NCBI GenBank assembly: GCA_030704615.1
Contig: CM060734.1
Span: 50,592,001-50,656,000, forward strand
Direction: 5' to 3'
Origin: Takakia lepidozioides
Taxonomy: Eukaryota > Plantae > Bryophyta
Length of the DNA stretch: 64,000 nt
Within the stretch, counting starts at the first letter, position 1; each line of letters opens with the position of its first letter. The translations under genes and the position numbers were made by a program. This document shows, in pieces, positions 20,205-44,200 of this stretch. Under the pieces are notes generated by a model. It had not been told where the DNA came from and did not search any database. It was given only the letters and a program-made list of their open reading frames with translations.

Positions 20205-20776
20205 TGTTGTGGACATGTGTGCGCGAGCTGGGCTCCGTAACGCTTCTGGAGACAAGGGAGGGTCGGGGCCGATGGGGTTGTAAGAAGGCTGCTGCTGATC
20301 TGTGAGCCTTCGAAGCTCGATGGCCTCATTCTGTTCATGAACCTCGGCTTCCAGCGTCGCGTGGAGGAGAGTGAATGAAAAATGGATGGTGTGTCTTGCC
20401 CGAATGGTTGCCAAGTTGGTGGGGGGGGGGGGGGCTGGTCGAAGGGGGGGAGATGAATCCAGAGGCCCTTGCCTTGGGGGTGATTTCCGAGCAGCGTTTT
20501 TTCCTCGATTAATGCTAGAATATGGGTTGATGGAGTAAGATCCGAAACCAGGCCAGGATATTGTTCAACGTAGGCTCCTCAGGTGATGACTGTGTGGGCC
20601 TGCAGTGAATAGTTGGGTGAGTACTTCAGAAGAATGGACTGAATTTTCTCCCTAAGAGTGGGGATGGGGTCCCCATCGATAGGGCAGGTAGCCATGAAGT
20701 ATCTCACGTCCACCGTTGTGATCCGGTGTGACTCCAGAGCGATCCCTTGTGGGGCAGTGGTAGAGCTGGTTGTGGC

Positions 20777-21126
20777 TGTCAAGTTAAATAAGCACAGTGT
20801 GACAACAGCTAGAATAAAACTAGTTATTTGTATTTAACACTTGGATTTAGGTCAAGTGTTAAATCAGGTGTCAAGTTTAATTTGACACCTGGTCCGTCTT
20901 ATCTTCACGAGAACGGCAGTCGCGCAGCTCATCTCTCTCAAGTTGAGCCTGCGCGACCGAGCTCCTGCATGCGTTTAGATCTGAGTGTACTCATGATGGG
21001 AGTGTAGGTTGTTGTGGGGTGGAGTCCCCATAGCTTGGGGTGCCCCTGGCTCGACTACTATTTCTAAGAGTGATGGTTTGGTTTTCATGTTTTGTGTCAA
21101 CAGTGTGTTCTTGGGTTTTCTTATCA
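20777..21126 (+). repeat. Copy 1 left terminal repeat A1 (350 bp, TG...TTATCA)
   Basis: Direct repeat of 32005-32355. Contains three hairpins (20832-20863, 20864-20891, 20919-20957). Confidence 0.95.
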
Positions 21127-21376
21127 CTCGAGAGAGATGACTTCTTACTTGTGAGTGCAAGGTAGGAGTTGAGGATTAGCACTTGTATGATTACCTCTGT
21201 GAAGTAATGCTTAGTTTGAGAAGCTTAAAAAAAAAAAAAACAAAAAGAAACATGCAGGTTTCGATCATCTCTGGTTTCTGGGTATATAGATGGTCCATGG
21301 AGGCAGGCTGCATGTCAAGCAGGGGCAAAGAACTGGTGTCTTTCCACTGGTAAGGATAGCGTTGGTTCTGGCATGA

Positions 21377-21625
21377 GGCCGCAGGGGCGGGACGGAGCTA
21401 TACTGCGAGGAAGCAGCCTTCGTTCTGGTCAGTGAGGGCGTGAACAGCTCACAGTGGGTGCGGCAAGCATTGGCGAAGCCAGAGCTGGCCAGGCAAGTTC
21501 TTGATGTGAACCTGCTGAAGACCACATGTATTGACAAGCTGCTGCTGCAGCTGATGGATGTGGCCATGCTTTGCACACACGAGGTGCCTGATAGACGTTT
21601 GGGCGAGCTGGTGTTCGAGGAGTGA
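21377..21625 (+). pseudogene. Captured fragment of a receptor-like kinase C-lobe (subdomains X-XI) in the copy 1 leader
   Basis: EGVNSSQWVRQALAKPELARQVLDVNLL...LLLQLMDVAMLCTHEVPDRR resembles the RLK consensus (LxxWVR...VLDxxL...LxIAxxCTxxxPxxRP). Recognition by eye only. Confidence 0.6.
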
Positions 21626-23055
21626 GCAAGGTTGGTGTTGTCCCTGGTGTGGTGTCGACGATTGCACTGTGTGATTACTCATTGGCGACGTTGTTTGCTG
21701 CTGCAGTAGGGCCCTATGTGGGGGCGTTGGTGATGCGCAGGTGGTGGCCTGGCCTGGCGAGCAACGTATGGGCTGGGCCTGTTACTGCCTGGGCCAGAGG
21801 TGAATCAGCAATGTTGAATTTTGGAGGAGATATATGCTGGAGTTGAACTACGGGAGCTGACGGTGTAAAGTGGAGTTTGGGCTGGCTGATAGGAAGAAGA
21901 GATAGGAAGAAGGTGCTGCAAACCGAGAGCACTCGAAGCGGCCTGTGAAGAGGAGGAAGGCTTCAAAGATGTACAAGCCAACTCGGATACTCTGTCGAAC
22001 GACCCAAATTGTGATTGAGATAACATTTCTTGAAGAAGAAGCTGCCTCAGCTCTCTGCCCAACCGTGCGAGAGGATTAAAGGGAGATATAGTTGTAACCT
22101 GCGAAAAGAGAAAGAATGAAGCATAGGGAGGGACATGCTTGACCGGTGCACGAGACCCATCACCAACACTGAAGGCACTGCCAGGGAATCCAGTCGGTTG
22201 CCAGATCGCAGGCCAGAGAAGCAAGCCTGGACGGAGGCCACTCTTGCAACCTTCTTGCTTCCGGACAGAGTGGGAATGCCAGTGGCCACCCAGGAAGATG
22301 CAGCACAGGCAGCCATTATTGAAGCAAACCGTATCAAAACCTGCACAAACTAGAGGATTGATGAGGACTGAAAGGATTGATGCATGATCCATTAGGGCAG
22401 CCGAGCATCGCCCTTACTATGAGCTGCACCTGAGGACACCAACACCATGCCGCTGATGCCAAGGACGTTGTGATGCCCTGTGCTGTTGTTGTAAGTCCCG
22501 CCATAGCTCTCTCTCTCTCATGGAAGATTGCTGCTTTGGAGTGCGCTCGGAATGCGGTGATGGTGGTCCTCCGCAGTGTAGAATAGGTCGGGGGCGTGTG
22601 TGCGTCCAGACACCACAGTCCAGCAAAGTCGACAGCATTCTATGCTCGAACTGCACCGGAAAATGGGGCAGTAGTGTGCTCACAATGTGAGGGGAACGGC
22701 CTCGGGAACCTGTAGATAACCAGGGAACAGGAACCAAGACAAGTATTTTTATTTTTATTTTAAAAGAGTTTTCTTTGTATTTGTTGTCTTATTAAATTAA
22801 ATTAAAAGGAAAGAAAAGAGAAATGTGTTAGGTTTAAAGAGCCTGGTTGGTCATATCTTTGTCAAATGAGCTCCGTTTGACTCAGTTTTTGGGGGGATAG
22901 TTGCAGAAAGGGGATAGAAAGGTTTTTGTTTTTGAGACTCTGCTAAAAATCTATGGAATTTTTAGAGTGTGAGTGTGCCGTGAAAGATCCACAATTCTGT
23001 TTCTAGAACCTATTCTGGTCTATTTGAGAGACAAATCTGTGGATGTCCTCCTTGT

Positions 23056-23805
23056 ATGGCTGGGGGAAATGAGGATGTAATTGAAAGGCAGGTCTTTTCT
23101 CTTAGCTTATGCACACAAGGGGACAGGATTTATGTTTCCCAAGGAACTCAGACTGATTTGAGTGGAGAACAATTGGACGAGTTGATTGCATACTGGGAGT
23201 CAGGCATTAGCAGTAGACAACAGACTGCTGTAGTTGGCGTTGAGGGCCTCAATATCGCTTAGGACAGTCAAAACTCTGTTGGAGCCAGCAGTTCTGCAGC
23301 TATAAGTGAAATACCAAAGTGGGTGAAAGCTAGGCTTGGAACACAGCCAAAGACAGCCCCGGGGACCAAGGTGTTCAGCCACAAGGCTGTGGTGTACTGG
23401 AGCAGAGGAGCAGGTGCTACACAAGTTTGTGCAATCAGACAGCGTTGCAGCCGGACACGCTCTGCACAAGGCAACCACGAGCGGGGGTTCATTAGCGATG
23501 ACAAGTTTGTTCTGTTTGAAGGAGATGCAGTCATTCGCAATGAGGACACCCGCAACCGTCTCAAAGCTTTCGAGTTGAGAGACTATCAGACCCTACCTTT
23601 GTTTTCTTTAGTGTTCAGTGAGCGGGAGATAGCAGAGTGTTGCTTTGTCTCTACTTGGCAAAAAGAGGAGGAGGGTTGGTTAGAGCGAACTACTGTAGCT
23701 TGGGACAAGGTTAGTGGCAGGTTTCTGGACATAGATATACCTCCTACATCTTACCATCATGCAGAGCGAGGCACTTTGAGAGAAGTCTGGCAGTTGATAG
23801 CATAG
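23056..23805 (+). pseudogene. Extra ~249-codon ORF of unknown function upstream of gag in copy 1 (one internal TAG)
   Basis: ORFs 23056-23262 and 23323-23805 are in the same frame, separated by a single TAG at 23260-23262. Confidence 0.55.
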
Positions 23806-24325
23806 ATCAGGATTAGATCTTGCTGGGTCGGGCTTCTATTCTTCCCCTCCATCTCTGTACTATTTTCATTACCTTGTACTTGTAGTTGCCAAAGCCTCTC
23901 TTGGTGGAGGCCAGTCAGTCCGGGGTTTTGGGCTGGGATATTCTGCAGGATCAGCGTTGCTGCTGGATTTTGGTGTGGGGGTGTTGATGTTTTGATTTCT
24001 TGTGTTTGGATCCCCCCCAACACCTGCATGCTTGACTGTGCGCCATGTTGGTTTTGTGTGGGCGCTTGCTTTCATAGGGATTAGGCCGGATTTGATCACC
24101 GGTCAATCCTAGAGTATGCTGTCAGTGGTGAGGCTGGAGTGATGACCAGCAAGACCACCAGTGTTTCTTCTATGGTGAGGCTGGGTTGATGACCAGCCAA
24201 CCATAGGAGTTCTTGCGGTGGATGCAGGTGTAGGTGCCCTGAGCCACTGGGATATGACCCTTAAACTGCAACAGGTGCCTACCCGTGTCACTATAAGAAT
24301 TAGTAATAGAGCCTTATAGTGTCAC

Positions 24326-27300
24326 GTGGGGGAGGTGCACATTGTGAGTGTCATCACGGAGTTACCCAGGGGTTCTGAGGGGAGTACAACTACAGGCAGT
24401 AGCAGTGAGAGTGGGTTCACCAAACGAGGTGTTCGTTTCAGACCACCTTCACCTCCACCCTCAACTAGTGCAGAGTCAGACACAGACTCGGAGGCTTCAT
24501 CAACAGGTGTGCAGTTTCATTCGCCATTGTTGTGGGACGACATGGAGGAGATGTATGGAGCTACCAAGGGGTCTCGTAGGTACTCTGGAGCTGTGGGCAC
24601 AATTGAGCTGGATGACTTTATCCAGGAGTTCGACAGCTGGTGTGATTTGCAGCAGATGCGCAATCCACAACTGTTCACTCCATTCATGGCGTGGAAGGGA
24701 CTGTTCCAGCATTTGGAAGGCCCGCCTATGGACGATTACCACGAGTTCAGGCGAGGACATGAAGCGGAGATTGAGGAGTGGAGGATGTATTGGTCACCTG
24801 ACTACGTCTCCATTACTCGAGGCACGACGCGACCAGTAGCTGCATCAGTACCAATAGCTCCCACTGCCAGCACTACTAGTGGAGCAAGTAGTGCTGGTAC
24901 TTCTGCAGGTGGTACCAGTTCAAAAGGTGCTACTACTCCTCCTGCCACGACTACAACACATGTGCCTAGATTCAACCCGGTGGTGGAGTTCTTCCAGGAG
25001 TTGCGGAGGAACTACCAAGGTGTACGGACAGAGAAGCTGCGAAGTTTGCAAGACTTCCAGCGCAAACCCAGTGAGAGCCTGCGAGAGGCGTACATTCGTA
25101 TGAGGCGCTTGATAAGTGTGACCCAAGGGGTTACTGAAGCTCAGGCAATCCAGTTTTGGTATGGAATTCTGGATAAAGAGCTCAAGAGAAGGGTGCGAGA
25201 TGCAACCCTGTTACAAGCAGCCCAACCCACATTAGCAGATGTGTTTCTGCTGGCTGAGCGGATTGAGCTCAACATGGTGGAGGAGCGAGTTGTTACCATT
25301 GGATTTGGCAAGGACATGCCTACACAAGGCGTAGCTGCCAGCCCACAGGCACAAGGAACCGCTCAACAGCGTGGTCAGGGGGGCAAGGTTTCCCAACCCA
25401 AGTTCCATGGAGCTTACATGGGACCTCAGGTGCAGAGGCCCGTGGCATCTTTTGCAGGCCAACAGCAACCAGGGGTGATATGTTGGACATGTGGAGGACC
25501 CCATGTCAAGAGAGATTGCCCAGAGAGTGGCAGAATGCCGGCACAAGCACAGCCTGCACAGTTGCAGTGTGGGCATTGTGGCAAGTATGGGCATGGAGAT
25601 GCCCAGTGTTATGACTTGCATCCTGAGTTGCGCCCAGGCCAGTTCCAAGGGAACAATGGTGGCCGGGGGCGAGGTGGACCAGCCCAGAGAGGATGAGGTG
25701 GTCGGGCACGAGGTGCAGGCCAAGGGCAAGCTCAACATAGCCAAGGACGCGGTGGTCAGGGTGTTGACCAAGGCATGGCCAACCGGCTTCAGCAGCTAGA
25801 GCAGAGGCTCGCTGCAAATGGCTATAACTCAGTTTGTACCGGCTCCCAGGCGGGATGGTCCACCTCCTGCTCCTGAGGGAGGAGATATGGGAGGCATGGG
25901 ATTCATGTGCGGAGCAGCACTACCACTAGTGCAGGTGGAGTTTGCTGCACCCGTGACTCGAGGAGCAGCACGAGCTCCTGAGCCACGAGGTGCAGAGGTG
26001 GAGTTGGATCCACAACATGGGGAGGCAAGCCGTCAGGCGAGGCTGCCTCAGTCATTCACCTTGGCGGAGACAGTGTCAACGCCATCCATGGCACCTAGTT
26101 CTCGCCCGACTGTTACCGAGGCGGAGGTTACTATGCCATTGGGGAGAGCTACACGTGTAGCACTGACACCTGCTGCCAAGGCTAGTGCAGCCGGTGTGTT
26201 GTTGGGGGCAGCCACCTCTGTGTGTCAAGCCCCACTGTTCTCGGCAACCATGATTGCGACGCCGGGGGTAAGACCTGCTGCAGTGTTCAGACTAGCAGCA
26301 ACACTCTGTGAGAGTGGGGAGGTCACTTCATCTTCTGCGGAGTTACTGGAAGGTGTAGTGGTAGAGGGATCCTCGGATTTGAGGGTCAAGACTGCCACGG
26401 CTGCGCCATGGCAAGCTGCAGCTGCCAGGTTGACGGAGCTGCCAGCTAGGCCAGCCTTTGAGCGCGCCATGGTGACACCTGGAGTTGTCTTGTTAGACAA
26501 CCAGGATGACATTTTCTCTTTGAGTGGACCGGCAGGCAAGAAGTACCGGCCACAGCGGGTCTTGTTGGACTCGGGAGCCTAGCCACTGATGTTGGGCAGA
26601 GCTGCTATTGCAAGTTTGGGCCTCATGGAGGCGGATATGGAGCCTTGTCCTTTCCAGATACAAACATCTCTAGGAGGATCAGAGCAGGCTCGGGGCATGA
26701 CACGGCATCAGTTGGCCATTAGACTACAGCCAGATCATCCTGTAGATGGCTCAGTGATGCGGGTCAAGGCCATTGTGACAGACGCAATCTCTTACGATGT
26801 CCTCGTTGGTGGGGCAGTGTTATATCCCATGGGCTTCACCCTGGACTTCTGGGAGGAGTCAGCATCCTACAGGCCTGGATGGCAGTCAGGGGATGGTCGC
26901 CGTGCACAGCTCCCTGTGACATTCATTGGGGGTATTGCAGCTGCCCAGCGGGGCAAGATGCCAACACTAGCCGCCTTCACAGCTGCAGTTAGTTGGCCTG
27001 GAGAGTTGCTGGAAGGCAATGCCCATGCAGAGGATGTGCCACATCCAGCAGAGCAGGATGACATGCATGGTACGGCGGAGTTGCCTGCCATGGTTGCTCA
27101 CACTCCATTGTGGGGTACGAGCAAGGATTTGCAGCTAGCTGCTGATGGACGGGTGCAACAAGCTTGGGTAGAAGCTTTTGTACCGTCAGGAGAGGAGGAG
27201 AGTGCGGTGATTGCACCAGGGCCACCTCAGTTGTCGCCATTGGACGCCACACCTCTTGTGTGGCAGCGCTCGGATGAAGGCATATGCCTTCTGGACTTAT

Positions 27301-28529
27301 TTGGCGGGATCAGCACTGGATTGGCTGCAGTGCTGCAGGCAGGTGTACGAGTTCGACGTTACCTGTATGTGGAGAAGGATGAGACTGCACGACGCGTCTC
27401 ACTGCGCCATGTTGCTCGGATGTTGCAGCAGTACCCTGAGTTGTTGCCGGTGTCTGCAGTTCGTGGATATCAGCAGGCCCTGCCAGCAGACATTGCGTTG
27501 CTGGGGGCGCAGGATTTGGAGCGGGTTGGCTCCATTGATCTGGTAGTGGCAGGTTGGCCCTGCCAAGGGCATTCATCAGCCGGGCATGGCAATGGATTGC
27601 TAGACTCGAGGACGGGTTTGTTTTGGGAGATGGTGCGGATTTTGCGCTACTTGCAGCTTCATCAAGCTGTATCTCCGGCATACATCTTGGAGAATGTGCC
27701 GCTGATGGGTGATTCTCGGGCCAGGGTGATGGCCAGTGTGCATCAAGTCCGGTCGTGGCTTGGGACAGCAGTGTTGCTGGATGCAGCTGCAGTGGGGTCA
27801 CGGGCTCATCGTCCACGACTATGGTGGACTAACTTGATGCCACCCGCACTGCTCAAGCGTGCATTTGATGGGGTGCAGCGGCCAGCACACCTCACCGTGG
27901 ATGGCATTTTGGACACAGGAAGGCAGTCTCAACGTGTGAGACACGATGACCGTTCGCCTTTGGCAGTGGTCAACAGGGTGGGTCAACCACGAGCAGCATT
28001 ACCTACACTGCTCAGCTTCCCAGGATCCCATGCTTTTTGGGATGGTGGACCTGGCCTCCTGTTGGATGCTCAGTTGCAGCAGTTAGTGGAGCCTAATGCC
28101 GACGAGCGAGAGCGGGCTATGGGGTTTTCCACTGGGACCACGGCGGTGCCTTCTCTTTCTGAGGCATCACGTCGTCAGGTGTTGGGGCAAGCAATGGATC
28201 TCAATTGCTTGACCTGGATTATCAGCTTGGCTATGGCTGAGCAACGTAGAGTGCAGAGTGCACTTCCCTTGACGGTCTCTCTACCTACCGAGACGGTACA
28301 GGCAGCGAGTGGGGGCGAGCCGGTGAGGACCACGGGGTGTAGACATCCATGGCACACGTGGGAGGTGCTCGAAGTTCAGAGGGAGTTGGCAGCCAAGGCA
28401 GCTGTGATGGATGAGGTTGGGGATTCTTCTCGGAATGAGGAGGTTCTCAATGATGAGATGATGGGGCAGGATGAGGCCTTGTCATTGACTGAGCAGGAAG
28501 GGAATACTGCTCAAGAGGTTGCAGCATAA
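24326..28529 (+). pseudogene. Copy 1 Gag - aspartic protease - C5 methyltransferase ORF (2 premature stops, 1 frameshift)
   Basis: Gag with knuckles CWTCGGPHVKRDC and CGHCGKYGHGDAQC, RGG-rich linker, protease LLDSGA (~26562-26579). Lesions TGA 25694, +1 A at ~25817 and TAG 26580 correspond to CGA, no insertion and CAG in copy 2, so the ancestral ORF was continuous. Confidence 0.92.
27279..28240 (+). CDS. DNMT3-like C5 cytosine methyltransferase domain (uninterrupted in copy 1)
   Basis: Motif I LDLFGGISTG, II YVEKD, IV AGWPCQG (catalytic Cys 27561-27563), VI ILENV, VIII AHRPRLWWTNL, IX ERERAMGF, X RRQVLGQAM, in unpermuted order. Confidence 0.95.
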
Positions 28530-31500
28530 CAACCACGGGACGCGTCCTCTACCTCTAAGCCCACTGGACTTAAGGTTGCAGTTACGGAGGACAATTGGGA
28601 GCCTGACATTGGACCCATTGTCACCGGAGGAGAGAGACGACGTATACGGCGGTTCCTGAGGGCTTACAGGAATTGCTTTGCCTTCAGTTTGAAGGACTTG
28701 GGAGCACTGAAGGGTCAAGAGATCCGTATTGAGTTGGCCACTGACATGCCAATCTTTCGAAGACCCTATAGATACAGTGACATGGAGAGGTCTTTGATTC
28801 AGATGAGGACTCAAGATCTCTGGGAGGAAGGTTTGGTGGAGCTCTCTGGTGGAGAGTATGCTTCAGCCACAGTGATGCCAGCCAAGAAGGATGTCTATGG
28901 CAATTGGACGGAGAGACGTATGTGCGGTGATTACCGGCCTGTAAATCGTCAGACCAAGTCCGATAGGTATGCCATGCCGACACCAGAGGAGATCTTTGAT
29001 GCCATTGGGCATTCCAAGGTCTATAGCACATTGGATTTACGATCCGGATATCACCAGTTGCCGATCAAGGAGGCGGATAAGCAAAAGACGGCATTCTGGG
29101 GGATCAATGAGCACGGGAAGAATTGCCTATACCAGTGGCGGTTCTTACCATTTGGGCTTAAAAACGCTCCCGCTGAGTTTCAAAGAGTCATGGACAGGAT
29201 TCTAGCAGGGGTGGAGTTTGCTCGGTGCTACATAGATGACATCATCATCTTTAGTGCTACGGTGGAGGAGCATGAGAGACACCTTCAGGGGGTATTTCAG
29301 CGCTTGAGGGCGCACGGATTGAAGTTACATCCGGGGAAGTGCAAGTTTTTCCACAACCAGATTGAGTATCTGGGTCACATGATATATCCTGGAGGATTGG
29401 GGGTACAGCAGACTAAGGTAGAGTCCATTGCACAGGTTCCACGCCCCACAGATGTGAGCCGAGTTCGAACTTTCATGGGGTTAGCAAACTATTACAGACG
29501 ATTTGTTAAGGGATTTAGCGCCATTGCAAAGGCTCTAACCAAGCTGACCAAGGTGGACCAGGAGTGGCAGTGGGAAGATGAGCAAGAACAAGCTTTTCAA
29601 GAGCTCAAGGCGAGGTTGACCTCGGCGCCCATCTTGAGACGACCTATCAGGGGGCGTCCTTTTCAGCTGCATACAGATTGGAGCATGTTGGGGCTTGGAG
29701 CGGTGCTCACACAGGTGGATGATGAGGGAAGAGAGTTCGTAGTGGCTTATGCTAGCCGCTCGAACAACGCTGCAGAGTCTAAGTATAGCTCATATGAGGG
29801 AGAATGCTTAGCTGCAGTGTGGGCCGTGGCACACTTCAAGTGCTATCTATACGGCAATCTCTTCACCCTTGTCACGGATCACCAACCACTCAAGTGGTTG
29901 ATGGAGTCAGACAAGCTTACGGGGAAGCTTGCACGGTGGGCACTCATCCTTCAAGAGTATGACTTTCAGGTTGTGCATGGACCGGGTTTGGTAAATCGGG
30001 ATGCAGATGGGTTGAGTCGCAATCCATGCACGAGCCAGCAGAATGATACTGGAGCTCGGTGGCATGGTGAGACGGACGAGGAGATGGTGCCCGGATGGCA
30101 TGCATCTGCATTTCTCTGTATCTTGGCAGCGGAAGGTCAGGTTGGACCTGCAACAGGGATGACTGTAGATCAAGTGTCTGAGGACCCTGAGGCCAACAAT
30201 GGAGCAAGGTGGCGCCAAAGATATACATGAGGATTCAGTTGTGTTGGACTACCTCCGCACTGGAGACACTGCAGCCACTGTGACTGCCAATGAGAGGGAT
30301 CGGATCCTACAACGAGCCAAGAGGTTCAAGGACACACCTGCTCCGAGTGTGGGAGGATGGTCGAGTGAGGATTGTGCCTCACCCAACACACCGGGCACGG
30401 TTAGTGCGGCATGCCCATGAGGAGTTGGGGCATTTTGGGGTGCGACGCACTCATAGTCTACTGCAGGGGCAGTATTGGTGGCGTGGTATGCACACAGAGT
30501 GCAACAACTTGTGGCTAGGTGCATGGTGTGTGACAGGGTGCGTGCTTCATTCAACGCCCCTACTCCACAATTGCACCCCTCTTCCGATCATGGGATTGGG
30601 CTACAGGTGGAGTCTTCACTTCGCAGGGGCGTTGCCACTGACCATGCGCCACAACAAGTACGTGTTGGTGATGGTGGAGCACTTCTCCAAGTGTATTGAA
30701 TTGGTTCCATTGCCTGATAAGGCTAGTGAGGGAGCTGCGTATGCATTCTTGGATTGTGTGCTTAGCCGATTCGGTGCTCCAGCTGAGGTACTCACGGACC
30801 AAGGAGAGAGTTCTTGGGGGAGTTTCAGGCTTTGTGTGACAAGGCCTTGATAGACCACCGCACCACTTCTTGGGATCATCCTGAGGCCAATGGCTTGGCA
30901 GAGAGAGTTGTTCAGATAGTAATAAAGAGGGGTTTGCGCAAGTATGGCTTGCAGAAGGGACACCTAGGAGATTGGGACCTTCAGTTACCCTGGTTAGCCA
31001 TGGGCTACAGGTTCAGCAAGCAAGCATCACTTGCCTCCTTCTCACCATACTTTCTTCTCTTTGGCCAAGAGCCGGATTTGCCTACATCCATTCGCAGAGA
31101 AGCTGCTACAGTTCTTAACCTTGACGATCCGGACGTGTGGGCACGTGCATGTGAGCAGCGTGCAGAGTTGTTCAAGAGAGTCATGCCCATGGCTTTCGAG
31201 AACCTTGCCATTGCAAAACATCGTGATACGTTGAGGTATGCTACCATACGTGGTGGGGGCTATCGTCCTGGGGTTCGGAGATTCAACCCTGGTGACTATG
31301 TCTATCTGCAGCAGACTGCTCCTACGACCCTGGATGTGACTGCAGGACGTGTTATTTTGAGGGTTCGAGAGGTCTTGCCCTCAGGCGTCTTGGTCTTGGG
31401 GGGTCGGGATGGCATAACTTGGAAGGACCATGTGCATAATTGTGCGCCATGTCACCTTCCGAATGTCGATGGCAGGATTGACCCAAACCGGCAGTGGTAT

Positions 31501-31658
31501 CTGCAGGTTTGAGGTGCATGTTGTGTGGGTCTGCTAAAGGGGCAGCCACCATGCTGGTGTGTGATCGATGCTCTAGAGGTTGGCATATGGGATGCTTGAC
31601 TCCACCTCTTGAGATGGTTCCAGATGGGGATTGGTTATGTCCGCATTGCATTGGATAG
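28530..31658 (+). pseudogene. Copy 1 RT - RNase H - integrase - PHD finger (frameshifted in the integrase region)
   Basis: RMCGDYRPVN, LDLRSGYHQ, PFGLKNAP, YIDD; LHTDWS, TDHQPL; HEELGH..C..C, TDQG, GLAER; PHD CMLC...CDRC...HMGC...CPHC at 31515-31650. Confidence 0.95.
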
Positions 31659-31917
31659 TGGGACTGGATACAACCATGGAAGGCTAACAAGAAACGCAAA
31701 GCCCAGCTACTAGGAGACCTTGAACACACGAGATCCTGGCTCAAGTTCACAGATTGCAAGACGGCGACTAACGATGGGGCTACTCTGTACCCGGCCTCTT
31801 GGTCTATAGAGTTTGAGTACAATAGGGACAGTGATAGAGGACTTAGTAGCGCTGTGGCTATTACATCTTGTAGCTATCTGGAGTAAGAGGGACATATCCA
31901 CCAGCTAGGGGGGCGAT

Positions 31918-32443
31918 TGTGGCAGACTACTTTATTGTGCATATATGTGTGGTGTGGTTTGGACAGCGATGTAATTGTGTAGCGATATGTATGCGCACGA
32001 CAGCTGTCAAGTTAAATAAGCACAGTGTGACAACAGCTAGAATAAAACTAGTTATTTGTATTTAACACTTGGATTTAGGTCAAGTGTTAAATCAGGTATC
32101 AAGTTTAATTTGACACCTGGTCCGTCTTATCTTCACGAGAGCGGCAGTCGCGCAGCTCATCTTCTCGGTTGAGCCTGCGCGACCGAGCTCCTGCATGCGT
32201 TTAGATCTGAGTGTACTCATGATGGGAGTGTAGGTTGTGTGGGGTGGGGTGGAGTCCCCATAGCTTGGGGTGCCCCTGGCTCGACTACTATTTCTAAGAG
32301 TGATGGTTTGGTTTTCATGTTTTGTGTCAACAGTGTGTTCTTGGGTTTTCTTATCCATTGTGGCAGACTACTTTATTGTGCATATATGTGTGGTGTGGTT
32401 TGGACAGCGATGTAGTTGTGTAGCGATATGTATGCGCAAGACA
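31918..32443 (+). repeat. Copy 1 right terminus: B1 (31918-32002) - GC - A2 (32005-32355) - CAT - B2 (32359-32443)
   Basis: Two 85-bp TGTGG...GACA repeats (2 mismatches) flank the second copy of A. Confidence 0.95.
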
Positions 32444-32447
32444 TGGC

Positions 32448-33784
32448 GTCCTTCGAAAAATGAGAGGAGTGACGCATGTTGTCTTTGGTGTCGACCCATG
32501 TAACAATTGTGAGTAGCCCCTCAGGGCCAAACTTGGAAATGACCGGAGCCTTGCACCGTTCCTGGCAATAACAGGGTTGATTGCAATTGTAGTTTTTCTT
32601 TCTTTGGTGTAGTCCTTGATGATATCTGCCTGTGTGGAAGTGTGCGGGTGGGGTTGCTAGAGCTAGCCTTTGGGATAGAGTTGTGGGCTTGATCGGATCT
32701 GGGGCGGGGTGGGGGGGCAGCTCCAGCCATTTGTGGAGCTGGTGCCAATACAGTAGCTGCCGCTTCTGCCCTCATGGGGTCCACATGGTCTTTAAGCCTC
32801 TTTCCGGGGGAAGGAAGAAGATGAGGTAGAAAGGTCCCAATTTCCTTGGTTGGGAAAGAGAGAGTCATTGAGTCTTTTCTGCTACTTTGTGGACTGCAGC
32901 TGCTGGGGCTACCGCATCAGGGTCTTTTCGATTTGCATTAGACTAGAATTGTCTTGATTTGAGATTGTGAGCCAAAGCATGTGCCTGAGAGTTGGGGGAG
33001 CCGTGCACGGAGGTTCTCTTGCGCTTAGCTTTTGGGCAGTTGACCCTCAGATGGCCTGTCTGGCCGCAAGTGTAGCAAGCGGAAGATGAAGTGTCTTCAG
33101 TGATTTTTACTGAGAAATAATTACCTTCCCTGTCAATTGGCAGACGAATAAACTCCGGCAGTATTGCATCAGCTGGCATTGAGACCACAATCTTTGCAAA
33201 ACCCGTATCATGAATTTTCGATGCAATTGTTACTCCTCCACGCTGGATGTTTTTTAGAGCCTTTGTGCACATCTCCGGATCAAAGACTGAGAGGCAGCCT
33301 AAGAAAACTCCAAAGTGATTGCCTATATTAGGTAGGCAGAAGAGGTACTGATCCGGGATATATGGAAGAGCTAAAGTCCTGGGGGCCCATACTTTCCCGT
33401 TACGGTTGCCTAGTGCCGCTGACCAGGGGAAAATATTAATGTTGAATCCCAGGAGGTGTGGGTTCGATGAGAGGGCTCGATCTGCTGCTTCTTTTGTACC
33501 TAGCAGGATGGAATAGAAGCCTTTGCCTCTGGAGTGGCAGAACTGCTGCTTTATGTCCCCTGATCCCCCCAAGTGCTTGATTGCCCATTCCCTTGCTATA
33601 TCCCTGTCCACTTTTTTTCCCAGTGCGGAGTAAGTCTAGTTAGCAATCCCAATCCCAGTATTTCGGTGACCATGTCATCGACGAAATCAAGGTCCACATC
33701 AACTAGTGGATCATTCTCGGACATTGCAAGTTGCAGAGCCGAGGGTGCTTCCGATTGTTCCAGCATGCCAGTCCATGATTCCAT
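32448..33784 (-). pseudogene. LINE ORF1 (RRM-like region + CCHC zinc knuckle), N-terminal part
   Basis: GKGFYSILL...INIFPW...CYTCGQTGHLRVNC. Same strand as, and upstream of, ORF2. Confidence 0.8.
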
Positions 33785-34133: not shown

Positions 34134-34495
34134 TGTCATGGTTTTAGTCATGGTTATCTAGAATTACCTACTTCTAGTTAACTAGGACATTTTAGATATT
34201 TATATTTATATTTTGGTGTTGGGGACTTCATTTGGTCTCACATGCAAATGAGGTGTCGAGCCTCACTTGAGACATGGAGATAGGTTTCCCCTTGGAGTGT
34301 TGAGAGGCTCATCTTCTTGTAGTGAGCCTCCATGAGCCTCTCCCACCTCCATAGCTCTAGGTATTGAGAGGGAGTGTGGTGAGGGCTTTGTAGGGTGGAT
34401 TCCCTTAGCAAAGGTGCCCTTGGCTTGACTTAGTTTATGTGATTGAGTGGATTCATGAGTGGAGTGTTTCCATTGTGTGTTCACTTCCATTATCA
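34134..34495 (+). repeat. Copy 2 left terminal repeat A1' (362 bp, TG...TTATCA)
   Basis: Direct repeat of 44669-45040. Not alignable by eye to copy 1 A except at the termini and around the hairpin. Confidence 0.95.
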
Positions 34496-35852
34496 CTACA
34501 AGAGAATTCTCCTTATGCTGTGAGTGCGGAGTGTAAGGGTTAGTAGCACTTGTGTGTTGGAGAGAGCTGGGAAAGAGCTCTTGTGTTGCAAGGTATTGAA
34601 GGTTTTGCACGGAAAATCCTTGTGGCGTGGAGAACATGGATTTGGTAGGTTTGAGAAGCATTACTTTGCTCTATAGCGGGGGGCAGCTTTTGAAAAGAGC
34701 TCTTGCATCACAAGAGAAGTGTTGTGTGTGGAGAAGATAGACACTAGGGTTTCAAGAGCAAGCTCTAGTTGTTCATGGTGTGAAAGAGAAGCCAAGAGCG
34801 GCACATGCTTGGGTTGGAAACACCATAGAAGGAGTACAACAAAGGGTAGCTTGAGGAGCATTGAGTAGCTCAAGAGAAGCTAAAAGTGGTTGTTCTATCC
34901 ATGGTGAAATGAAGCCAAGTGGGGTTTCATTTGGTTGACAAACAGCAAACGAAGGCGGCGCTAGAAGGGAGTGCTTTTGCTAGTTCTATGAGTTCTTGGA
35001 TTGCTCTTGGTCAAGCAAGTGATTGACCAAGCAAGTGACGCATGTGTGGAGCATGCTTTCCAAGTGTGGCTTCCATTCAAGCTTGAGGAGAGCTAGAAGG
35101 TGAAGTGAGCAAGTTCATTCATTGTGTATGAGGTGGTGCATGTTGTGGAAGAAAAGCCAAGGATCTACATAGGCTAGGGCTTGAAGACAACAAAAGCAAC
35201 CACTTGGAGAGCATCTAGAAGCTCAAGATGACTCCAAAGGGAAGCATGTGGGTGAGAATTCTATCCATGATGATGTGAAACCAAGCCTAGAGTATTGAAG
35301 AGCTTGGAGCACATGTGGGAGATCATTGGAGGTGGTCTTCATGAAGAAAGGAGATTGTGGCTCACGGCATGCATAGCAACTTCAACCATACATTAGCATG
35401 TGACAAGACAAGGAAGGGGAAGGTGAAGCTCATGTATTCATTCTTTTTTTGCTTAAGTTTTGTGGTGGATGGTTGATCAAGCAAGTGATGCTTATGTGGA
35501 ACATGCTCTAAGGCTTGTGACTTCAAGTCTGAGAAGATGAGCTCTTGAATAGAGGTGTGGATACACATTATGATGAATGAAGACAACACCTAGGTCAAGA
35601 GGTGGGAGTGTGTGTGACTAACCCATGCAAGGGAAAGCACATGGAAGATGGCATACAAAATTCAAATTCAAGCAAGGCTTGGCGCTTGTCATTGGGCACA
35701 TTAGTGTGCTATGAGTTCCAAGGAGATCAAGAGGAACTTGTCAATTTGGGATGAATGCATTACAAAGTAAGATAATGCAATCTTGCATGCATGTTAGGGG
35801 GGAAGATACCATGAAGAAGGTGTTTCCTACTATACTCTACAGACCCTAGTCT

Positions 35853-36300
35853 CCATACTCTTCAAGAAACTGAGTATGGACTCCCTCTGCCCATCATACA
35901 CTTTTAAGAACAGAGTATGGAACCCCTCTCCCCAACATACACTTTTGTGAACAAGGTATGGGCCCCCTCTGCCCAACATACGTTTTTATGAACAGTGTAT
36001 GGGCTCCCTCTGCCCCGCCATACTCTTTTAAGAACAAAGTATGGATACAAGTTGAGAGACTTTGCCTACCATACGTTTTCATTAAAAGTGTATGAAATCT
36101 AGGGTGTATCTGGAGGAGTATTGCCTTTGGAGGATCTTTGGGGGGTCATTTGAGGAGGTTTTGTAAGACACTTGAAGAGCTCTTGAAGGGGTTTTTGGAG
36201 GACTATTTGGAGGACTATTGGGGGTCCTTGAAGACCAATATTTGGCAAACATTTGGAGCTTTGGAGGGCTATTTGGAAGACTATTTTGGGGTCCTTGGAG
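35853..36300. repeat. Tandem arrays in the copy 2 leader: ~40-bp units (CATAC...GTATGG...CTCTGCCC, about 5-6 copies) then ~12-bp GGAGGACTATTT-like units
   Basis: Directly visible degenerate tandem units with no unique spacers. Confidence 0.8.
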
Positions 36301-37035
36301 GCTAATATTTGGCGAGCTTAAGGAGTCTTTGGCAACTTGTTTGAAGGACTTTTTGGGGTCCTTGAGGGCCAAGATTTGGCAGGCTTTGGGGCCCTTAGTG
36401 AGATTGTTTGAGAGACATCTTGAGGGCTCTTGGAGAGTTATTTGAGAGACCCTGAAGGTAGTTATGTCTGTTGGTCATGAGCAAAGAGCGTTTAGAGATA
36501 GGGGGAGACTAGTGGATGAGAGCATTCTGGGATTAGGAATTGCTTTACTCTCTCTTCCCCGTAGTCTTCCACCTCTATGTAGGCCAAAACCTTTCCGTAG
36601 GTGGAGGCAAGAGTCAGTCCGGGTTTGGGCTGGGGTGTCCTTGCAGGAGCGACACTGTGGCGTGTTTTTTTGGTGTGGGGGAGTTACTGTCTTGATTTTC
36701 TTGTATTGGATCCCGCCCACACCTGCATGGTTGACTGTGCGCCATGTCCAGTTTTGTGTGGGCGCTTGTTTTCATTGGAGGTTGGGTCCGGATTTGATGA
36801 CACCGCCAATCCTAGAGCATGCTGTCGGTGGTGAGGCTGGGGTGATGACCAGTTAGACCATCATTGTTTCTCTTATGGTGAGGCTGGATTGATGACCAGC
36901 AGACCATATGAGTGCTTGCAGTGGATGCAGGTGTAGGTTATGGTTACGAACCTAGTAGTCTAAGCCATAAGCTGCAACAGGTTCTCTACCTTGTTACCTT
37001 GTGGAAAAGGGGATTAGAGACAGGTTTACACAGGT

Positions 37036-40000
37036 ATGGTTGTGAGTTTTCATCGCGGAGGTCCACCAGCCGCGAGGGGAGTGCCGGTACGAGCACCAGC
37101 GATACTAGTGGGTACACAAGACAAGGTGTGCGTTTAGGCCACTTTCACCTTCAGTTTCTTCTGAGGAGGTTTCAGACTCGGAGTCAGGAGGATTCTCGCT
37201 GAGGGTGCAAGTCATTCCGTGCCATTGTTGTGGGACACGATAAATGAGATGTATGGAGCTACCAAGGGGCCACGTAGGTACTCTAGAGCTGTGGGCACCA
37301 TCGAGCTTGATGACTTCATACAAGAGTTTGACAGTTGGTGTGATTTCAGCAATGCGCAATCCACAACTGTTTACGCCCTTTATGGCATGGAAGGGGCTAT
37401 TCCAGCCTTGAGGGGCCGCCCATGGATGATTACCATGAATTTAGGCGGGGACATGCGGTGGAGATTGAGGAGTGGCGAGAGTATTGTCACCTACTATGTC
37501 TCAATCAGTAGAGGCACAAATGGCAGCGGTGACATCAGCAGCTACACAAACATCTCCCAACTACAAATACGTAGTGGAACAGAGTGTCGGTACTTCTGCA
37601 GGTGGTACCAGTTCAAAGGTGCTACTACTCCTCCTGCCACGACTACAACACATGTGCCTAGATTCAACCCGGTGGTGAAGTTCTTCCAGGAGTTGCGGAG
37701 GAACTACCAAGTGTATGGACAGAGAAGCTGCGAAGTTTGCAAGACTTCCAGCGCAAATCCAGTGAGAGCTTGCGAGAGGCCTACACTTGTATGAGGCGCT
37801 GATAAGTGTGACCCAAGGGGTTACTGAAGCTCAGGCAGTCCAGTCTGGTATGGATTTTTGACAAGGAGCTCAGGAGAAGGGTGCGGATGCAACCCTGTTA
37901 CAAGCGGCCCAACCCACATTAGCGGATGTGTTTTCTTCTTGGCTTGAGCGGATTGAGCTCAACATGGTGGAGGAGCTAGGGATGGGGGTTAATGCGAGTT
38001 TTTACATTGGATTTGGCAAGACCTGCCCTGCAAGGCGCACTGCCCAGCACCACAGGTACAAGGGACTGCCCAACGGCGTGGTCAGGGGGCAAGGTTGCCC
38101 AATCCAAATTCCATGGAGCTTCAGGGGACCTCAGGTGCGAGGCCAGTAGCTTCGTTTGCAGGCCAACAACAACCAGGGGTGGTATGTTGGACATGTGGAG
38201 GACCCATGCAAGAAAGATTGCCCAGAAAGTGGCAAAGGGCCGGCAACAAGCACAACCTGCAACAGTTGCAGTGTGGTCATTTGTGGCAGATGGGCATGGA
38301 GATGCCCAGTGTTATGACTTGCACCCTGAGTTGCGGCGAGGCCAATTCCAAGAGAACAATGGTGGCCGAGGGCGAGGTGGAGCACCTCAGAGAGGACGAG
38401 GTGCAGGACGAGGGCAAGCACAGTATGGCCAAGGACGTGGAGGTCAGGCGTTGACCAAGGTATGGCCAACCGGCTTCATCAGCTAGAGCAAAGGCTCACT
38501 GCCATGGCCACAACTTAGGTGGTACCAACTCCAAGACCTGAGGGTCCACCTCTTGTTCCTCCTCAGCAGCGTCATCCTGACAGAGGAGACATGGGAGGCA
38601 TAGGATTTATGTGTGGGGCAGCACTACCACTAGTGCAGGTAGAGTCTGCTGCAGCCGTCACCTGAGGAACAGCACGAGTTTCTAAGCTACGAGGTGCAGA
38701 GGTGGAGTTGGATTCACAACGTGGGGAGGCAAGCCGTCAGGCTAGGTTGCCTCAATCATTCATCTTGGCGGAGATAGTGTCGACGACATCCATGGCACCT
38801 AATTCTCGCCCCATGGATACCGAGGCGGAGGTTATTGTGCCATTGGGAAGAGCTACACGTGCAGCACTGACATCTGCTGCCAAGGCTAGTGCAGCCAGTG
38901 TGTTGTTGGGGGTGGCCACCTCTGTGTGTCAGGCCCCACTGTTCTCGGCAATCTTGATTGCGACGCCGGGGGTAAGAGCAGCCGCAGTGTTCAGACTAGC
39001 AGCAACACTCTGTGAGAGTGGGGATGTCACTTCATCTTCTGCGGAGTTAGTGGAAGGTGTAGTGGCAGAGGGATCCTCGGATTTGAGGGTCAAGATTGCC
39101 ACGGCTGCGCCATGGCAAGCTGCAGCTGCCAGGTTGATGGAGCTGCCAGCTAGGCCAGCCTTTGAGCGCGCCATGGTGACACCTGGAGTTGTCTTGTTAG
39201 ACAACCAGGATGACATTTTCTCTTTGAATGGACCGGCAGGCAAGAGGTACCGGCCACTGCGGGTTTTGTTGGACTCGGGAGCTCAGCCACTGATGTTGGG
39301 CAAAGCCGCTATTGCAGGTTTGGGCCTCATGGAGGCGGATATGGAGCCTTGTCCCTTCCAGATACAGATATCTCTGGGAGGATCAGAGCAGGCTCGGGGC
39401 ATGATACGGCGTGAGTTGGCCATTAGACTACAGCCAGATCATCCTGTATATGGCTCAGTGATGCAAGCCAAGGCCATTGTGACAGATGCGGTCTCTTACG
39501 ATGTCCTCGTTGGTGGGGCAATGTTGTATCCCATGGGCTTCACCTTGGATTTTTGGGAGGAGTCAGCATCCTACAGGCCTAGATGGCAGTCAAGGGATGG
39601 TCGTCGTGTACAGCTCCCTGTGACGTTCATTGGGGGTGGTGCTGCTGCCCAACGGGGCAAGATGCCAACACTAGCAGCCTTCACAGCTGCAGTTAGTTGG
39701 CCTGGAGAGTTGCTGGAGGGCAATGCCTATGCAGAGGATGTGTCACCTCCAGCAGAGCAGGATGACATGCATGGTACGGCATAGTTGCCTGCCATGGTTG
39801 CTCCACCCATTGTGGGGTACGAGCAAGGATTTGCAGCAGCTGCTGATAGACGGGTGCAAAAGCCTGGGTAGAGGCCTTTGTACCATCAGGAGAGGAGGAG
39901 AGTGCGGTGATTGCACCAGGACCACCTCAGTTGTCGCCATTGGACACCACCTCTTTGTGTGGCAGTGCCCGGATGAAGGCATATGCCTTCTGGACTTGTT

Positions 40001-41228
40001 TGGCGGGATTAGCACTGGATTGGCTGCAGTGCTACAAGCAGGTGTACGAGTTCGACGTTACCTATATGTGGAGAGGGATGAGACTGCACGACGCGTCTTA
40101 CTACGCCATGTTGCTCAGTTGGTGCAGCAGTACCCTGATTTGTTGCCAGTGTCTGCAGTTCGTGGATACCAACAAGCCTTGCCAGCAGACATCTCCTTGC
40201 TGGGGCGCATGATTTGGAGCGGGTTGGCCCTATTCACTAGTAGTGCAGGTTGGCCCTGCCAAGGGCTTTCATCAGCTGGGTATGGCAATGGGTTACAAGA
40301 CTCAAGGTCACGCCTGTTTTTGGGAGATGTTGAGGGTCCTGCGCTATTTACAGCTTCAGCAGACAGACTCTCCGGCATATATCTTGGAGAATGTGCCATT
40401 GATGGGTGATTCTCGGGCCAAGGCGATGGCCAGTGTACATCAAGTGCGGTCTTGGCTTGGGACAGCAGTATTGCTAGATGCAGCTGCAGTGGGGTCACGG
40501 GCTCATCGCCCACGACTATGGTGGACCAACTTGATACCACCTGCATTGCTCAAGCGTGCATTTGATGGGGTGCAGCGGCCACCAAACCTGACGGAGGATA
40601 GCATTTTGGACATAGGGAGGCAGTCTCAGCGTGTGAGACACGATGACCGATCACCTTTGGCAGTGGTCAATAAGGTGGGCCACCCACGAGCAGCATTGCT
40701 TACACTGCTCAGCTTTCTAGGATCTCATGCTTTCCGGGATGGTGGACCTGGCCTCTTGTGGGATAGCCAGTTGCAGCAGTTAGTGGAGCCCAATGCTGAC
40801 GAGCGCGAGCGGGCAATGGGTTTCACCACTGGTACCACGGCAGTGTCATCTCTTTCTGAGGCATCACGTCGTCAGGTGTTGGGGCAAGCAATGGATCTCA
40901 ATTGCTTGACTTGGATTATCAGCTTGGCTATGGTTGAGCAGCGCAGAGTACGGAGTACACTTCCCTTGATGGTCTCCCTGCCTACCGAGACGGTATAGGC
41001 AGCGAGTGGGGGCGAACAGGTGAGGACCACGAGGTGCACGCCGCATCCATGGCACACGTGGGAGGTGCTCGAGGTTCAAAAGGAGTTGGCAGCCAAGGCG
41101 GGCGTGATGGATGAGGTTGGGATTATTCTCGGGTTGAGGAGGTCCTCAAGGATGGGATGATGGGGCAGGATGAGACATTGTCACTGACAGAGGAGGCAGT
41201 GGTCACTGCTCAAGAGGTTGCAGCATAA
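37036..41228 (+). pseudogene. Copy 2 Gag - protease - C5 methyltransferase ORF, many frameshifts and stops
   Basis: Homologous to 24326-28529. LLDSGAQP, LDLFGGISTG (~39990), AGWPCQG (PCQ at 40254-40262), ILENV, AHRPRLWW, RRQVLGQAM. Confidence 0.92.
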
Positions 41229-44200
41229 CAACCACGAGACGCGTCTTCTACCTCTAAACCTGCTGGACTTAAGGTTGTAGTCACGGAGGACAACTGGGAG
41301 CCTGCTGTTGGACCTATAGTCACCGGAGGAGAAAGACGACGTATACGGCGGTTCTTGAGGGCTTACAGGAACTGCTTTGCCTTCAATTTGAAGGACTTAG
41401 GAGCACTGAAGGGTCAAAAGATTCGCATTGAATTGGCTACTGACACGCCAATCTTTCGGAGACCCTATAGATACAGTGACATGAGAGGTCCTTGATTCAG
41501 ATGAGAACTCAGGACCTTTGGGAGGCTGGTTTGGTGGAGCTATCTGGGGGAGAGTATGCTTCAGCCACAGTGATGCCAGCCAAGAAGGATGTCTATGGCA
41601 ATTGGACGGAGAGACGTATGTGCGGTGATTACCGGCCTGTAAATCGTCAGACCAAGTCCGATACGTACGCCATGCCGACACCAGAGGATATCTTTGATGC
41701 CATTGGGCATGCCAAGGCTTTAGCACTTTGGATTTACGATCCGGATATCACCAGTTGCCGATCAAGGAGGCGGAAAAACAGAAGACGGCATTCTGGGGGA
41801 TCAATGAGCACGGGGATGATTGCCTATACCAGTGGCGGTTCTTACCATTTGGGCTTAAGAACGCTCCGACAGAGTTTCAGAGAGTCATGGACAGGATTCT
41901 AGTAGGGGTGGAGTTTGCTTGGTACTACATAGATGACATCATCATCTTTAGTGCTACGGTGGAGGAGCATGAGAGACATCTTCACGTGATATTTGAGCGC
42001 TTGAGGGCGCACGGATTGAAGTTACATCCGGGGAAGTGCAAGTTTTCCACAACCAAATTGAGTATCTGGGTCACATGATATATCCTGGAGGATTGGGGGT
42101 ACAACAGACTAAGGTAGAGTCCATTGCACAGATTCCACGCCCCACGGATGTGAGCCGAGTTCGAGCTTTCATGGGGTTAACAAACTATTATAGACGGTTT
42201 GTTAAGGGTTTTAGTGCCATTGTAAAGGCTCTAACCAAACTGACCAAGGTGGACCAGGAGTGGGTGGAAGATGAGCAGGAACAAGCTTTCAAGAGCTCAA
42301 GGCAAGGTTGACCTCGGCGCCCATCTTGAGACGACCTATCAGGGGGCGTCCTTTTCAGCTGCATACAGATTGGAGCATGTTGGGGCTTGGAGCGGTGCTC
42401 ACAGGTGGATGATGAGGGAAGAGAGTTCGTAGTGGCTTATGCTAGCCGCTCGAACAACGCTGCAGAGTCTAAGTATAGCTCATATGAGGGAGAATGCTTA
42501 GCTGCAGTGTGGGCCGTGGCACACTTCAAGTGCTATCTATACGGCAATCTCTTCACCCTTGTCACGGATCACCAACCACTCAAGTGGTTGATGGAGTCAG
42601 ACAAGCTTACGGGGAAGCTTGCACGGTGGGCACTCATCCTTCAAGAGTATGACTTTCAGGTTGTGCATGGACCGGGTTTGGTAAATCGGGATGCAGATGG
42701 GTTGAGTCGCAATCCATGCATGAGCCAGCAGAATGATACTGGAGCTCGGGCATGGTGACGGACGAGGAGATGGTGCCCGGATGGCATGCATCTGCATTTT
42801 TGTGTATCTTGGTAGCGGAAGGTCACGTTGGACCTACAATAGGGATGACTGTAGACCAAGTGTCTGAGGACCCTGAGGCCAGCAATGAGCAAGGTGGCGC
42901 CAAAAATATACATGAGGATTCAGCTGTGTTGGATTACCTCCGCACTGGAGACACAACAGCCACTGTGACTGCCAATGAGAGGGATCGGATCCTACAACGA
43001 GCTAAGAGGTTCAAGTGGGAGGGGACACACCTGCTCCGAGTGTGGGAGGATGGTCAAGTGAGGATTGTGCCTCACCCAACATAGCGGACACGGTTAGTAC
43101 GGCATGCCCATGACGAGTTGGGGCATTTTGGGATGCGACGCACTCATAGTCTACTGCAGGGGCAGTATTGGTGGCGTGGTATGCACACAGAGGTGCAACA
43201 ATTTTGTGGCTAGGTGCATGGTGTGTGACAGGGTGCGTGCTTCATTCAACGCCCCTGCTCCACAATTGCACCCTCTTCCGATCATGGGATTGGGCTACAG
43301 GTGGAGTCTTCACTTCGCAGGGGCGTTGCCACTGACCATGCGCCACAACAAGTACGTGTTGGTGATGGTGGAGCACTTCTCCAAGTGGATCGAGTTGGTT
43401 CCATTGCCTGATAAGGCTAGTGAGGGAGCTGCGTATGCATTCTTGGATTGTGTACTTAGCCGATTCGGTGCTCCAGCTGAGGTACTCACGGACCAAGGGA
43501 GAGAGTTCTCGGGGGAGTTTCAGGCGTTGTGTGACAAGGCCTTGGTAGACCACCGCACCACTTCTTGGGATCATCCTGAGGCCGATGGCTTGGCAGAGAG
43601 GGTTGTTCAGACAGTGAAGAGGGGTTTGCGCAAGTATGGCTTGCAGAAGGGATACCTAGGAGATTGGGACCTTCAGTTACCTTGGTTAGCCATGGGCTAC
43701 AGGTTCAGCAAGCAAGTATCACTTGCCTCCTTCTCACCATACTTTTTTCTCTTTGGCCGAGAGCCGGATTTGCTTGCATCCATTTGTAGAGAAGCTGCTA
43801 CAGTTCTCAACCTTGACGATCCGGACATGTGGGCACGTGCATGTGATCAGCGTGCAGATTTGTTCAAGAAAGTCATGCCCATGGCTTTCGAGAACCTTGC
43901 CATTGCACAACATCGTGATACGTTGAGGTATGCTACCATACATGGTGGGGGCTATCGTCCTGGGGTTCGGAGATTTAACCCTGGTGACTTTGTTTATCTG
44001 CAGCAGACTGCTCATACGACCTTGGATGTGACTGCAGGACGTACTATTTTGAGGGTTCGAGAGGTATTGCCATCGGGAGTCCTGATCTTGGAGGGTCGGG
44101 ATGGCATGATTTGGAAGGACCATGTGTGTAATTGCGCGCCATGTCACCTTCCAAATGTTGATGGAAGGGTTGACCCAAACCTGACAGTGGTACCTGCAGG

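Follow-up and report, generated by a model that had tools for sequence, protein, structure and literature searches.

A 64,000-nucleotide stretch of Takakia lepidozioides DNA (contig CM060734.1, positions 50,592,001 to 50,656,000; hereafter the window) contains two copies of a Gypsy-type retrotransposon, which carries its own DNMT3-type cytosine methyltransferase (DNMT) domain. The domain closes the Gag-protease (PR) frame before a conserved in-frame stop, rather than forming one Pol polyprotein with the reverse transcriptase (RT), and it is under purifying selection, as the RT is. The DNMT is likely made at the Gag level, with Pol produced by readthrough, and we consider it about an even chance that the enzyme is packaged with Gag and methylates the new complementary DNA (cDNA) of the element, while a PHD finger steers integration to silent chromatin. 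In the accessible parts of the cited sources, to which all statements on the literature refer, published descriptions of a retrotransposon with its own DNMT3 were found only from algae.

Why a transposon should carry a transposon-silencing enzyme was left open in PMC5890265. The present family occurs in annotated land-plant genomes, including that of the model Marchantia polymorpha, which makes the question directly testable; CG-methylation mutants of Marchantia release transposons (10.1101/363937). It offers two anatomical handles, namely an enzyme that is likely at the capsid level, and a DDE integrase that apparently builds split ends, otherwise a hallmark of tyrosine-recombinase elements. 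As well, element-borne DNMT domains can inflate host methyltransferase gene counts in bryophytes.

The methyltransferase domain and its relatives

The domain of copy 1 (27279-28241, forward strand) is open and encodes 321 amino acids (aa), which match the profile PF00145 with an E value of 6e-12, above the curated cut-off. Its motifs stand in linear order, with DLFGG at 27294, YVEKD at 27366, GWPCQ at 27552 (catalytic Cys codon 27561-27563), LENV at 27687, AHRPR at 27804, ERAMGF at 28110 and RRQVLG at 28170, corresponding to motifs I, II, IV, VI, VIII, IX and X; the C5 methyltransferase hallmarks, motifs I, IV (Cys), VI (ENV) and VIII (RxR) and the fold dependent on S-adenosylmethionine (SAM), are thus present. 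A sequence search of solved structures placed DNMT3A, 3B and 3C at the top, with HhaI and DRM behind (profile E values of 1e-19 for DNMT3A, 3e-11 for HhaI and 6e-8 for DRM). The AlphaFold (AF2) model of the domain (pLDDT 84) had DNMT3A as its best Foldseek match (E 1e-18), and structural comparison gave a Z of 25.4 for DNMT3A, with a root-mean-square deviation of 2.7 A over 258 residues, and a Z of 21 for HhaI. DRM, DNMT2 and the bacterial enzymes are all more distant from the domain than DNMT3A/B, and by its motifs and predicted fold it is a non-permuted DNMT3-type C5 methyltransferase with intact catalytic motifs. An earlier note on this DNA, made from the letters only, had described a full C5 methyltransferase with catalytic PCQ, ENV and RxR motifs in a linear, DNMT3-like and not DRM-permuted arrangement, and had proposed the PF00145 search as a check; its description agrees with all of these results.

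The element domain shares fold and motif order with animal DNMT3A/3B, whereas DRM is permuted. It is, however, 20-25% identical to animal DNMT3A/3B and plant DNMT3/DRM, possesses neither PWWP nor ADD, and has a longer target-recognition region.

Between copies 1 and 2, dN/dS is 0.18 for the DNMT, 0.19 for the RT and 0.61 for the Gag-PR linker. Against the metagenome relatives L031, L044 and L042 it is 0.10-0.11 for the DNMT and 0.08-0.09 for the RT, at a dS near 2, which is close to saturation, while close sibling pairs range from 0.09 to 0.53, a spread that decay after insertion would lead one to expect. The catalytic Cys and the F of FGG are present in 51 of 51 full-length in-frame locus copies and the Glu of ENV in 50, and E138, N139, R178 and R180 are invariant across 14 divergent proteins, as would be expected of a functional active site and SAM pocket. 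Neither a dN/dS near 1 nor loss of the catalytic Cys in most copies was seen, two of the outcomes that the earlier note had named as speaking against a stable family module, and its view of the domain as such a module is upheld.

This conservation bears on the suggestion that the domain is retained for nucleic-acid binding, particle assembly or another non-catalytic role, or for RNA methylation, which we regard as unlikely. Such a role would fit the shift of domain position between clades, the whole clades with a change of PC to EC, and the finding that KnitGypsy-Dnmt3, a relative from Klebsormidium, gave no methylation in yeast, a result which its authors called inconclusive (PMC5890265). The retained Cys, FGG, ENV and arginine residues, however, speak for catalysis. 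Although both window copies are broken and just 6 of the 51 locus copies are free of stops, it is hardly credible that a piece of host DNMT3 was captured recently and evolves neutrally, and this idea is largely refuted by the dN/dS of 0.10-0.18, by 253 clusters of relatives (at 50% identity) with E below 1e-30, by a DNMT position common to liverwort, moss and Closterium proteins, and by the 75% identity of the window domain to element-borne domains, as against 20-25% to human DNMT3.

Instead, the DNMT domain is an old module and not a one-off capture, because relatives are found in Marchantia polymorpha (18 of 60 matches), Calypogeia fissa (75% identity), Sphagnum, Closterium and green algae. 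Further named relatives come from Monoraphidium and Haematococcus, together with a 'Chrzof1' protein, and no named match was obtained from ferns, lycophytes, seed plants or Klebsormidium in two protein searches, each of which scored 7991 candidates of limited length. In a FastTree phylogeny of 89 chosen rows, composed of element-borne and phage domains only, without host DNMT3, the window domain falls in a well-supported group of eight with liverwort proteins, and forms with the DNMT before the RT are largely apart from those with the DNMT before the integrase (IN). Viral contigs yielded only distant methyltransferases (27-50% over part of the domain) and no algal-type element, and no prokaryotic donor was found in prokaryote genomes, where the single match was an element contig in a cyanobacterial metagenome-assembled genome.

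That contig (L111:1-9285) is an open element with a single junction of the repeats B and A described below, assembled as circular, and probably derives from a contaminating plant or alga. In a large clade to which green-algal proteins belong (P0041-P0048, P0054, P0177 and others), the DNMT lies between RNase H (RH) and integrase, which indicates that the domain has moved within the element. The replacement of PC by EC in motif IV marks whole clades (L071-L110 and many algal-type proteins).

Coding layout and the conserved stop

Copy 1 (20777-32443, forward strand, as are all element features below) begins with TGTC, ends with GACA and is flanked by the 4-bp target duplication TGGC (20773-20776 and 32444-32447); an empty-site-like joint of 20760 to 32443 was found in contig data. 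Its first open reading frame (ORF1, 24542-28529) encodes Gag with a zinc knuckle, a protease (active-site motif LLDSG at 26562-26576; PF13650 stays under its cut-off in open relatives) and the DNMT, and is broken in this copy by a stop at 25694, an indel at about 25816 and a stop at 26580, which lies within the protease. A further stop at 28527, between DNMT and RT, has the CARYYA-type context TAA CAA CCA (28527-28535), and readthrough into pol is predicted there. ORF2 (28530-31658) encodes RT (YIDD at 29229), RH, IN (H2C2 and rve) and PHD, and has several 1-2 base indels past 30200. The order Gag-PR-RT-RH-IN, the Ty3-type RT, the DDE integrase, the polypurine tract (PPT) and the target duplication are those of Ty3/Gypsy elements.

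Copy 2 (34134-45128), with the target duplication AAGG, has many single-base indels, and its internal region is 89% identical to that of copy 1. Its DNMT lies at about 39980-40940 and retains the catalytic residues in spite of four single-base indels (copy-1 positions 27503, 27539, 27548 and 27620), and its conserved stop at 41226 has the identical context TAA CAA CCA. The earlier note had placed the domain in frame between protease and RT in both copies, the second at about 39978-40935. The location of the second copy proved accurate, and in copy 1 the domain does lie between LLDSG and YIDD in one reading phase; the frame itself is interrupted by the stops at 26580 and 28527 in copy 1 and by the four indels within the domain in copy 2. 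The split repeats, the putative self-priming site and the PHD finger described below had gone unremarked in that note.

The stop at 28527 is not decay, because it is kept in copy 2 and in the family. Of 80 metagenome loci, the survey covered the 59 in which DNMT and RT are both present, and 45 of these are in phase. In the closest clade all 19 in-phase loci carry a stop at the corresponding position, 18 of them with CAA CC after it, and the ~50% clade has TAG CAR YYA in 4 of 4. In L050 a single stop separates a Gag-PR-DNMT frame of 1369 aa from an RT-RH-IN-PHD frame of 1047 aa, and L111 is alike. In contigs of the host organism, TAG occupies the stop site in about 99% of summed depth, and the breaks at 25694 and 25816 are specific to this copy. 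Tobacco mosaic virus and further plant viruses use CARYYA to signal readthrough (PMC4132726). Because the conserved stop ends the Gag-protease-DNMT frame, the DNMT is probably produced in Gag-like amounts.

The C-terminus of the integrase carries the PHD finger (31515-31655; 44193-44348 in copy 2), which matches PF00628 with an E value of 2e-10. Its nearest relatives are the PHD fingers of CHD4, PHF12, KDM5 (PHD1), ATXR5, PHF21A, BAZ2 and UHRF1, most of which we take to be readers of unmethylated H3K4; the ADD domain of DNMT3A also reads this mark. No chromodomain matched in the frames scanned, where the PHD is present instead.

The closest known system, compared by published description only, is KnitGypsy-Dnmt3 of Klebsormidium nitens (de Mendoza et al. 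2018, PMC5890265), which has Gypsy domains, an intronless and non-rearranged DNMT3 with Ka/Ks below 0.2, and repeats that are, per the legend, the 'same as that of a DIRS retrotransposon'. The window element agrees in its Gypsy domains, intronless non-rearranged DNMT3, purifying selection and DIRS-type repeats. However, the DNMT of KnitGypsy-Dnmt3 was described as part of the Pol ORF, whereas that of the window element lies in the Gag-PR frame before a leaky-type stop, and the host is a land plant instead of Klebsormidium. The PHD, self-priming, target duplication and palindromic junction are not mentioned in the accessible text on KnitGypsy-Dnmt3 (PMC5890265). Other retrotransposon-borne cytosine methyltransferases include the SymbioDIRS-borne DNMT3, which methylates CG de novo in yeast (PMC5890265), and the EpiLTR DNMT, which is sister to DNMT4 (bioRxiv 10.64898/2026.05.21.726589); these belong to other element classes and DNMT clades, and the window element has no adenine methylase or chromodomain. 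'Streptophytes' are mentioned without land plants being named in the accessible text of PMC12344493 and bioRxiv 10.64898/2026.05.21.726589. Land-plant copies, the leaky stop, and split repeats with a DDE integrase (the KnitGypsy legend aside) were not found in the literature covered, most subscription papers and figures lying outside that coverage; the supplements of PMC5890265 and PMC12344493 gave no match, and supplementary figures may list land-plant copies.

Split repeats, putative self-priming and the internal junction

In both copies a repeat A stands at the 5' end and the series B-A-B at the 3' end. Two like long terminal repeats (LTRs) are not present, and LTR finders would therefore likely miss such elements. 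In copy 1, A1 (20777-21125), putatively part of U3 plus R-U5, is followed by a primer-binding site (21126-21140) which is not of tRNA type and pairs with a stretch of A1 (20929-20943), the predicted RNA 5' end and self-primer. Towards the 3' end, the PPT AGCTAGGGGGGCG (31903-31915) precedes B1 (31916-32002, terminus CACGACA), A2 (32005-32355) and the terminal B2 (32357-32443), with one extra base between A2 and B2. B1 and A2 meet in an internal palindromic junction, GACA-GC-TGTC (31999-32008), where the right end is joined to the left and which is a predicted integrase site. The corresponding repeats of copy 2 are A1 34134-34494, B1 44580-44666, A2 44669-45040 and B2 45042-45128. As read from these repeats, this is in effect a Gypsy element whose LTRs are permuted, the layout being [BA]-body-[BA] reopened at the palindrome.

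Ends of TGTC...GACA recur among the relatives, and exact 4-bp duplications flank 8 of the 10 elements for which both ends are available (the two window copies, L046, L060, L077, L078, L083 and L087; L055 has one mismatch and L075 none). The B1|A2 junction has the form GACA-NN-TGTC also in the distant L050, L061 and L111. A putative self-priming duplex of 13-18 bp between the sequence after A1 and the middle of A was found in 9 of 9 elements, which belong to few families, and 0-4 of 100 shuffles attained its score; the predicted fold z of the region is -3.5 and -2.9, and the self-priming stretch often lies about 25-30 bases past a TATA box. These features suggest self-priming of Tf1 type instead of a tRNA primer.

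The split-direct-repeat layout is the same as that of Ngaro/PAT elements, A1-ORFs-B1A2B2 (PMC8547959). Unlike these elements, which use a tyrosine recombinase, the window element has an H2C2/rve DDE integrase, TG...CA ends and 4-bp duplications, and no tyrosine recombinase family matched in any scanned frame. The Tf1/sushi elements and plant Tcn1 are self-primed Gypsy elements (PMC6317226, PMC4600332), which resemble the window element in a primer-binding site complementary to their own 5' repeat, the lack of a tRNA site and a Ty3-type RT, but possess a chromodomain and two like LTRs in place of PHD, split repeats and DNMT. Cleavage of palindromic end-to-end junctions is reported for the foamy virus integrase (PMC1180852).

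The A2|B2 junction corresponds to the U5 end joined to the start after the PPT, the two ends that a conventional linear cDNA would have. Copies differ at this junction, with an extra base or, in L087 and L106, a shortened B2. The 3' products are PPT-B-A in 11 loci (two of which look like one locus) and PPT-B alone in 7, while A-B-A was found at 0 of 23 distinct 5' ends. Such one-sided products would follow if the RT jumped at one end or if one site were protected. The distances between B1 and B2 and between A1 and A2 overlap within and between elements and do not decide whether each cycle makes B2 anew from B1. In addition, L057:5538-5819 holds an A-B joint that keeps 10 bases of the primer-binding site.

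Protection of one site leads to a further reading, which we hold to be improbable. The Gag-borne DNMT3 would methylate the CpG beside the junction in the manner of a restriction-modification system, shielding the internal junction from the element's own integrase and deciding which GACA-NN-TGTC is cut, and one of several cDNA junctions would thereby be spared, giving A-body-B-A-B, the sole form able to replicate again. The element must indeed leave one integrase-type junction uncut, its products are one-sided, split repeats and DNMT co-occur here and in KnitGypsy-Dnmt3, and 22 of 32 right ends retain a CpG at a distance of five bases from the tip, in clades with DNMTs no more than 40-70% alike. 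However, the CpG may persist simply because the integrase site includes it, a template jump affecting one end of the cDNA gives the asymmetry without methylation, and the forms with PPT-B alone indicate that the inner site can terminate the element, although recombination between B1 and B2 yields them too. If this reading were true, the methyltransferase would belong to the machinery of transposition and would have been retained from green algae to bryophytes.

Proposed cycle and window neighbourhood

In the preferred reading, methylation of new cDNA, most ribosomes would halt after the DNMT and few would pass the CARYYA-type stop into RT-RH-IN-PHD, placing the DNMT at the Gag level. The RNA would prime itself, and ordinary LTR-type reverse transcription would give a linear [BA]-body-[BA] cDNA, whose joined ends would form the A2|B2 junction; the integrase would then cut the GACA-NN-TGTC palindrome to yield A-body-B-A-B. 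The DNMT, released by the protease, would methylate the cDNA before integration, as was proposed for DIRS-borne DNMT3 (PMC5890265), and the PHD, resembling readers of unmethylated H3K4, would guide integration to silent chromatin, into which an insert that is already methylated would blend.

Several observations weigh against this proposal. The ~40% clade, in which the DNMT is continuous with the RT unlike in the window element, has a CAR-context stop in 0 of 22 in-phase loci, 12 of them fully open, and a conserved stop upstream of its DNMT was looked for and not found. The DNMT lies inside Pol, beside the integrase or after the RT, in 110 of 243 protein matches; together with the ~40% clade, this means that Gag-level dosage is not needed family-wide. 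Motif IV reads EC, not PC, in 27 of the 51 locus copies as well as in many algal-type proteins, and KnitGypsy-Dnmt3 gave no methylation in the yeast test that its authors called inconclusive. In sequence alignments, the R-D dimer-contact residues and the CpG-reading arginine of DNMT3A have no counterpart in the domain. Both window copies are broken and share a His for the first integrase Asp, which is Asp in 17 of 17 loci. Finally, if the intermediate were a simple two-LTR circle opened at one palindrome or the other, A-B-A-body-B forms should occur, for which the 5' ends offer no example, and the end-joining step would need an asymmetry.

The DNMT might instead act on chromosomal DNA, at the target site or on integrated copies, to limit the element itself or to hold insertions within silent chromatin, which we consider rather unlikely. 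Gag-level expression would supply far more enzyme than a single cDNA requires, the PHD is of a silent-chromatin-reader type, and deamination-type changes (C-to-T/G-to-A) at the end CpGs of 9 of 32 right ends imply that integrated copies are methylated by something. However, host enzymes account for this decay, since the observed/expected CpG ratio is about 0.45 throughout the window, the host PPR gene included. Moreover, a domain fused to Gag enters particles by default, as is established for LTR elements.

Several features of the copies stand apart from these questions. Summed contig depth across the element greatly exceeds the depth over copy-specific stretches, which is a hint of a large family and not a copy number. 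About 21270-22700 in the leader of copy 1 has low depth in family contigs and is likely a copy-specific insertion. Dozens of single-base deletions at 37100-43500 of copy 2 relative to copy 1 may be assembly error and not decay. Compared over 23881-31868 and 36578-44559, the copies form a mosaic, with Gag and DNMT 64-90% alike and RNase H parts 98-99% alike, which suggests recombination or gene conversion between subfamilies. Their terminal repeats are just 46-58% alike, while the His at the first integrase Asp is common to both.

The window also contains a host PPR-E-DYW gene (1335-4262, reverse strand), a marker whose named relatives are exclusively from land plants; the host is therefore a land plant, as the earlier note had held. 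In a tree of PPR proteins the host fell in none of the starred groups of land plants, and a lycophyte affinity suggested by whole-protein identity was rejected. A two-exon host gene at 48513-50754 (forward strand), with the terminus YGRG and no Pfam match, presumably resembles the plastid-division protein PDV. Long charged low-complexity exons of 284 and 890 aa, likewise without a Pfam match, lie at 59402-63530 (forward strand). A LINE-type endonuclease frame (PF03372; 15333-19053, reverse strand) and a zinc-knuckle frame (32943-33635, reverse strand) are LINE pieces flanking copy 1.

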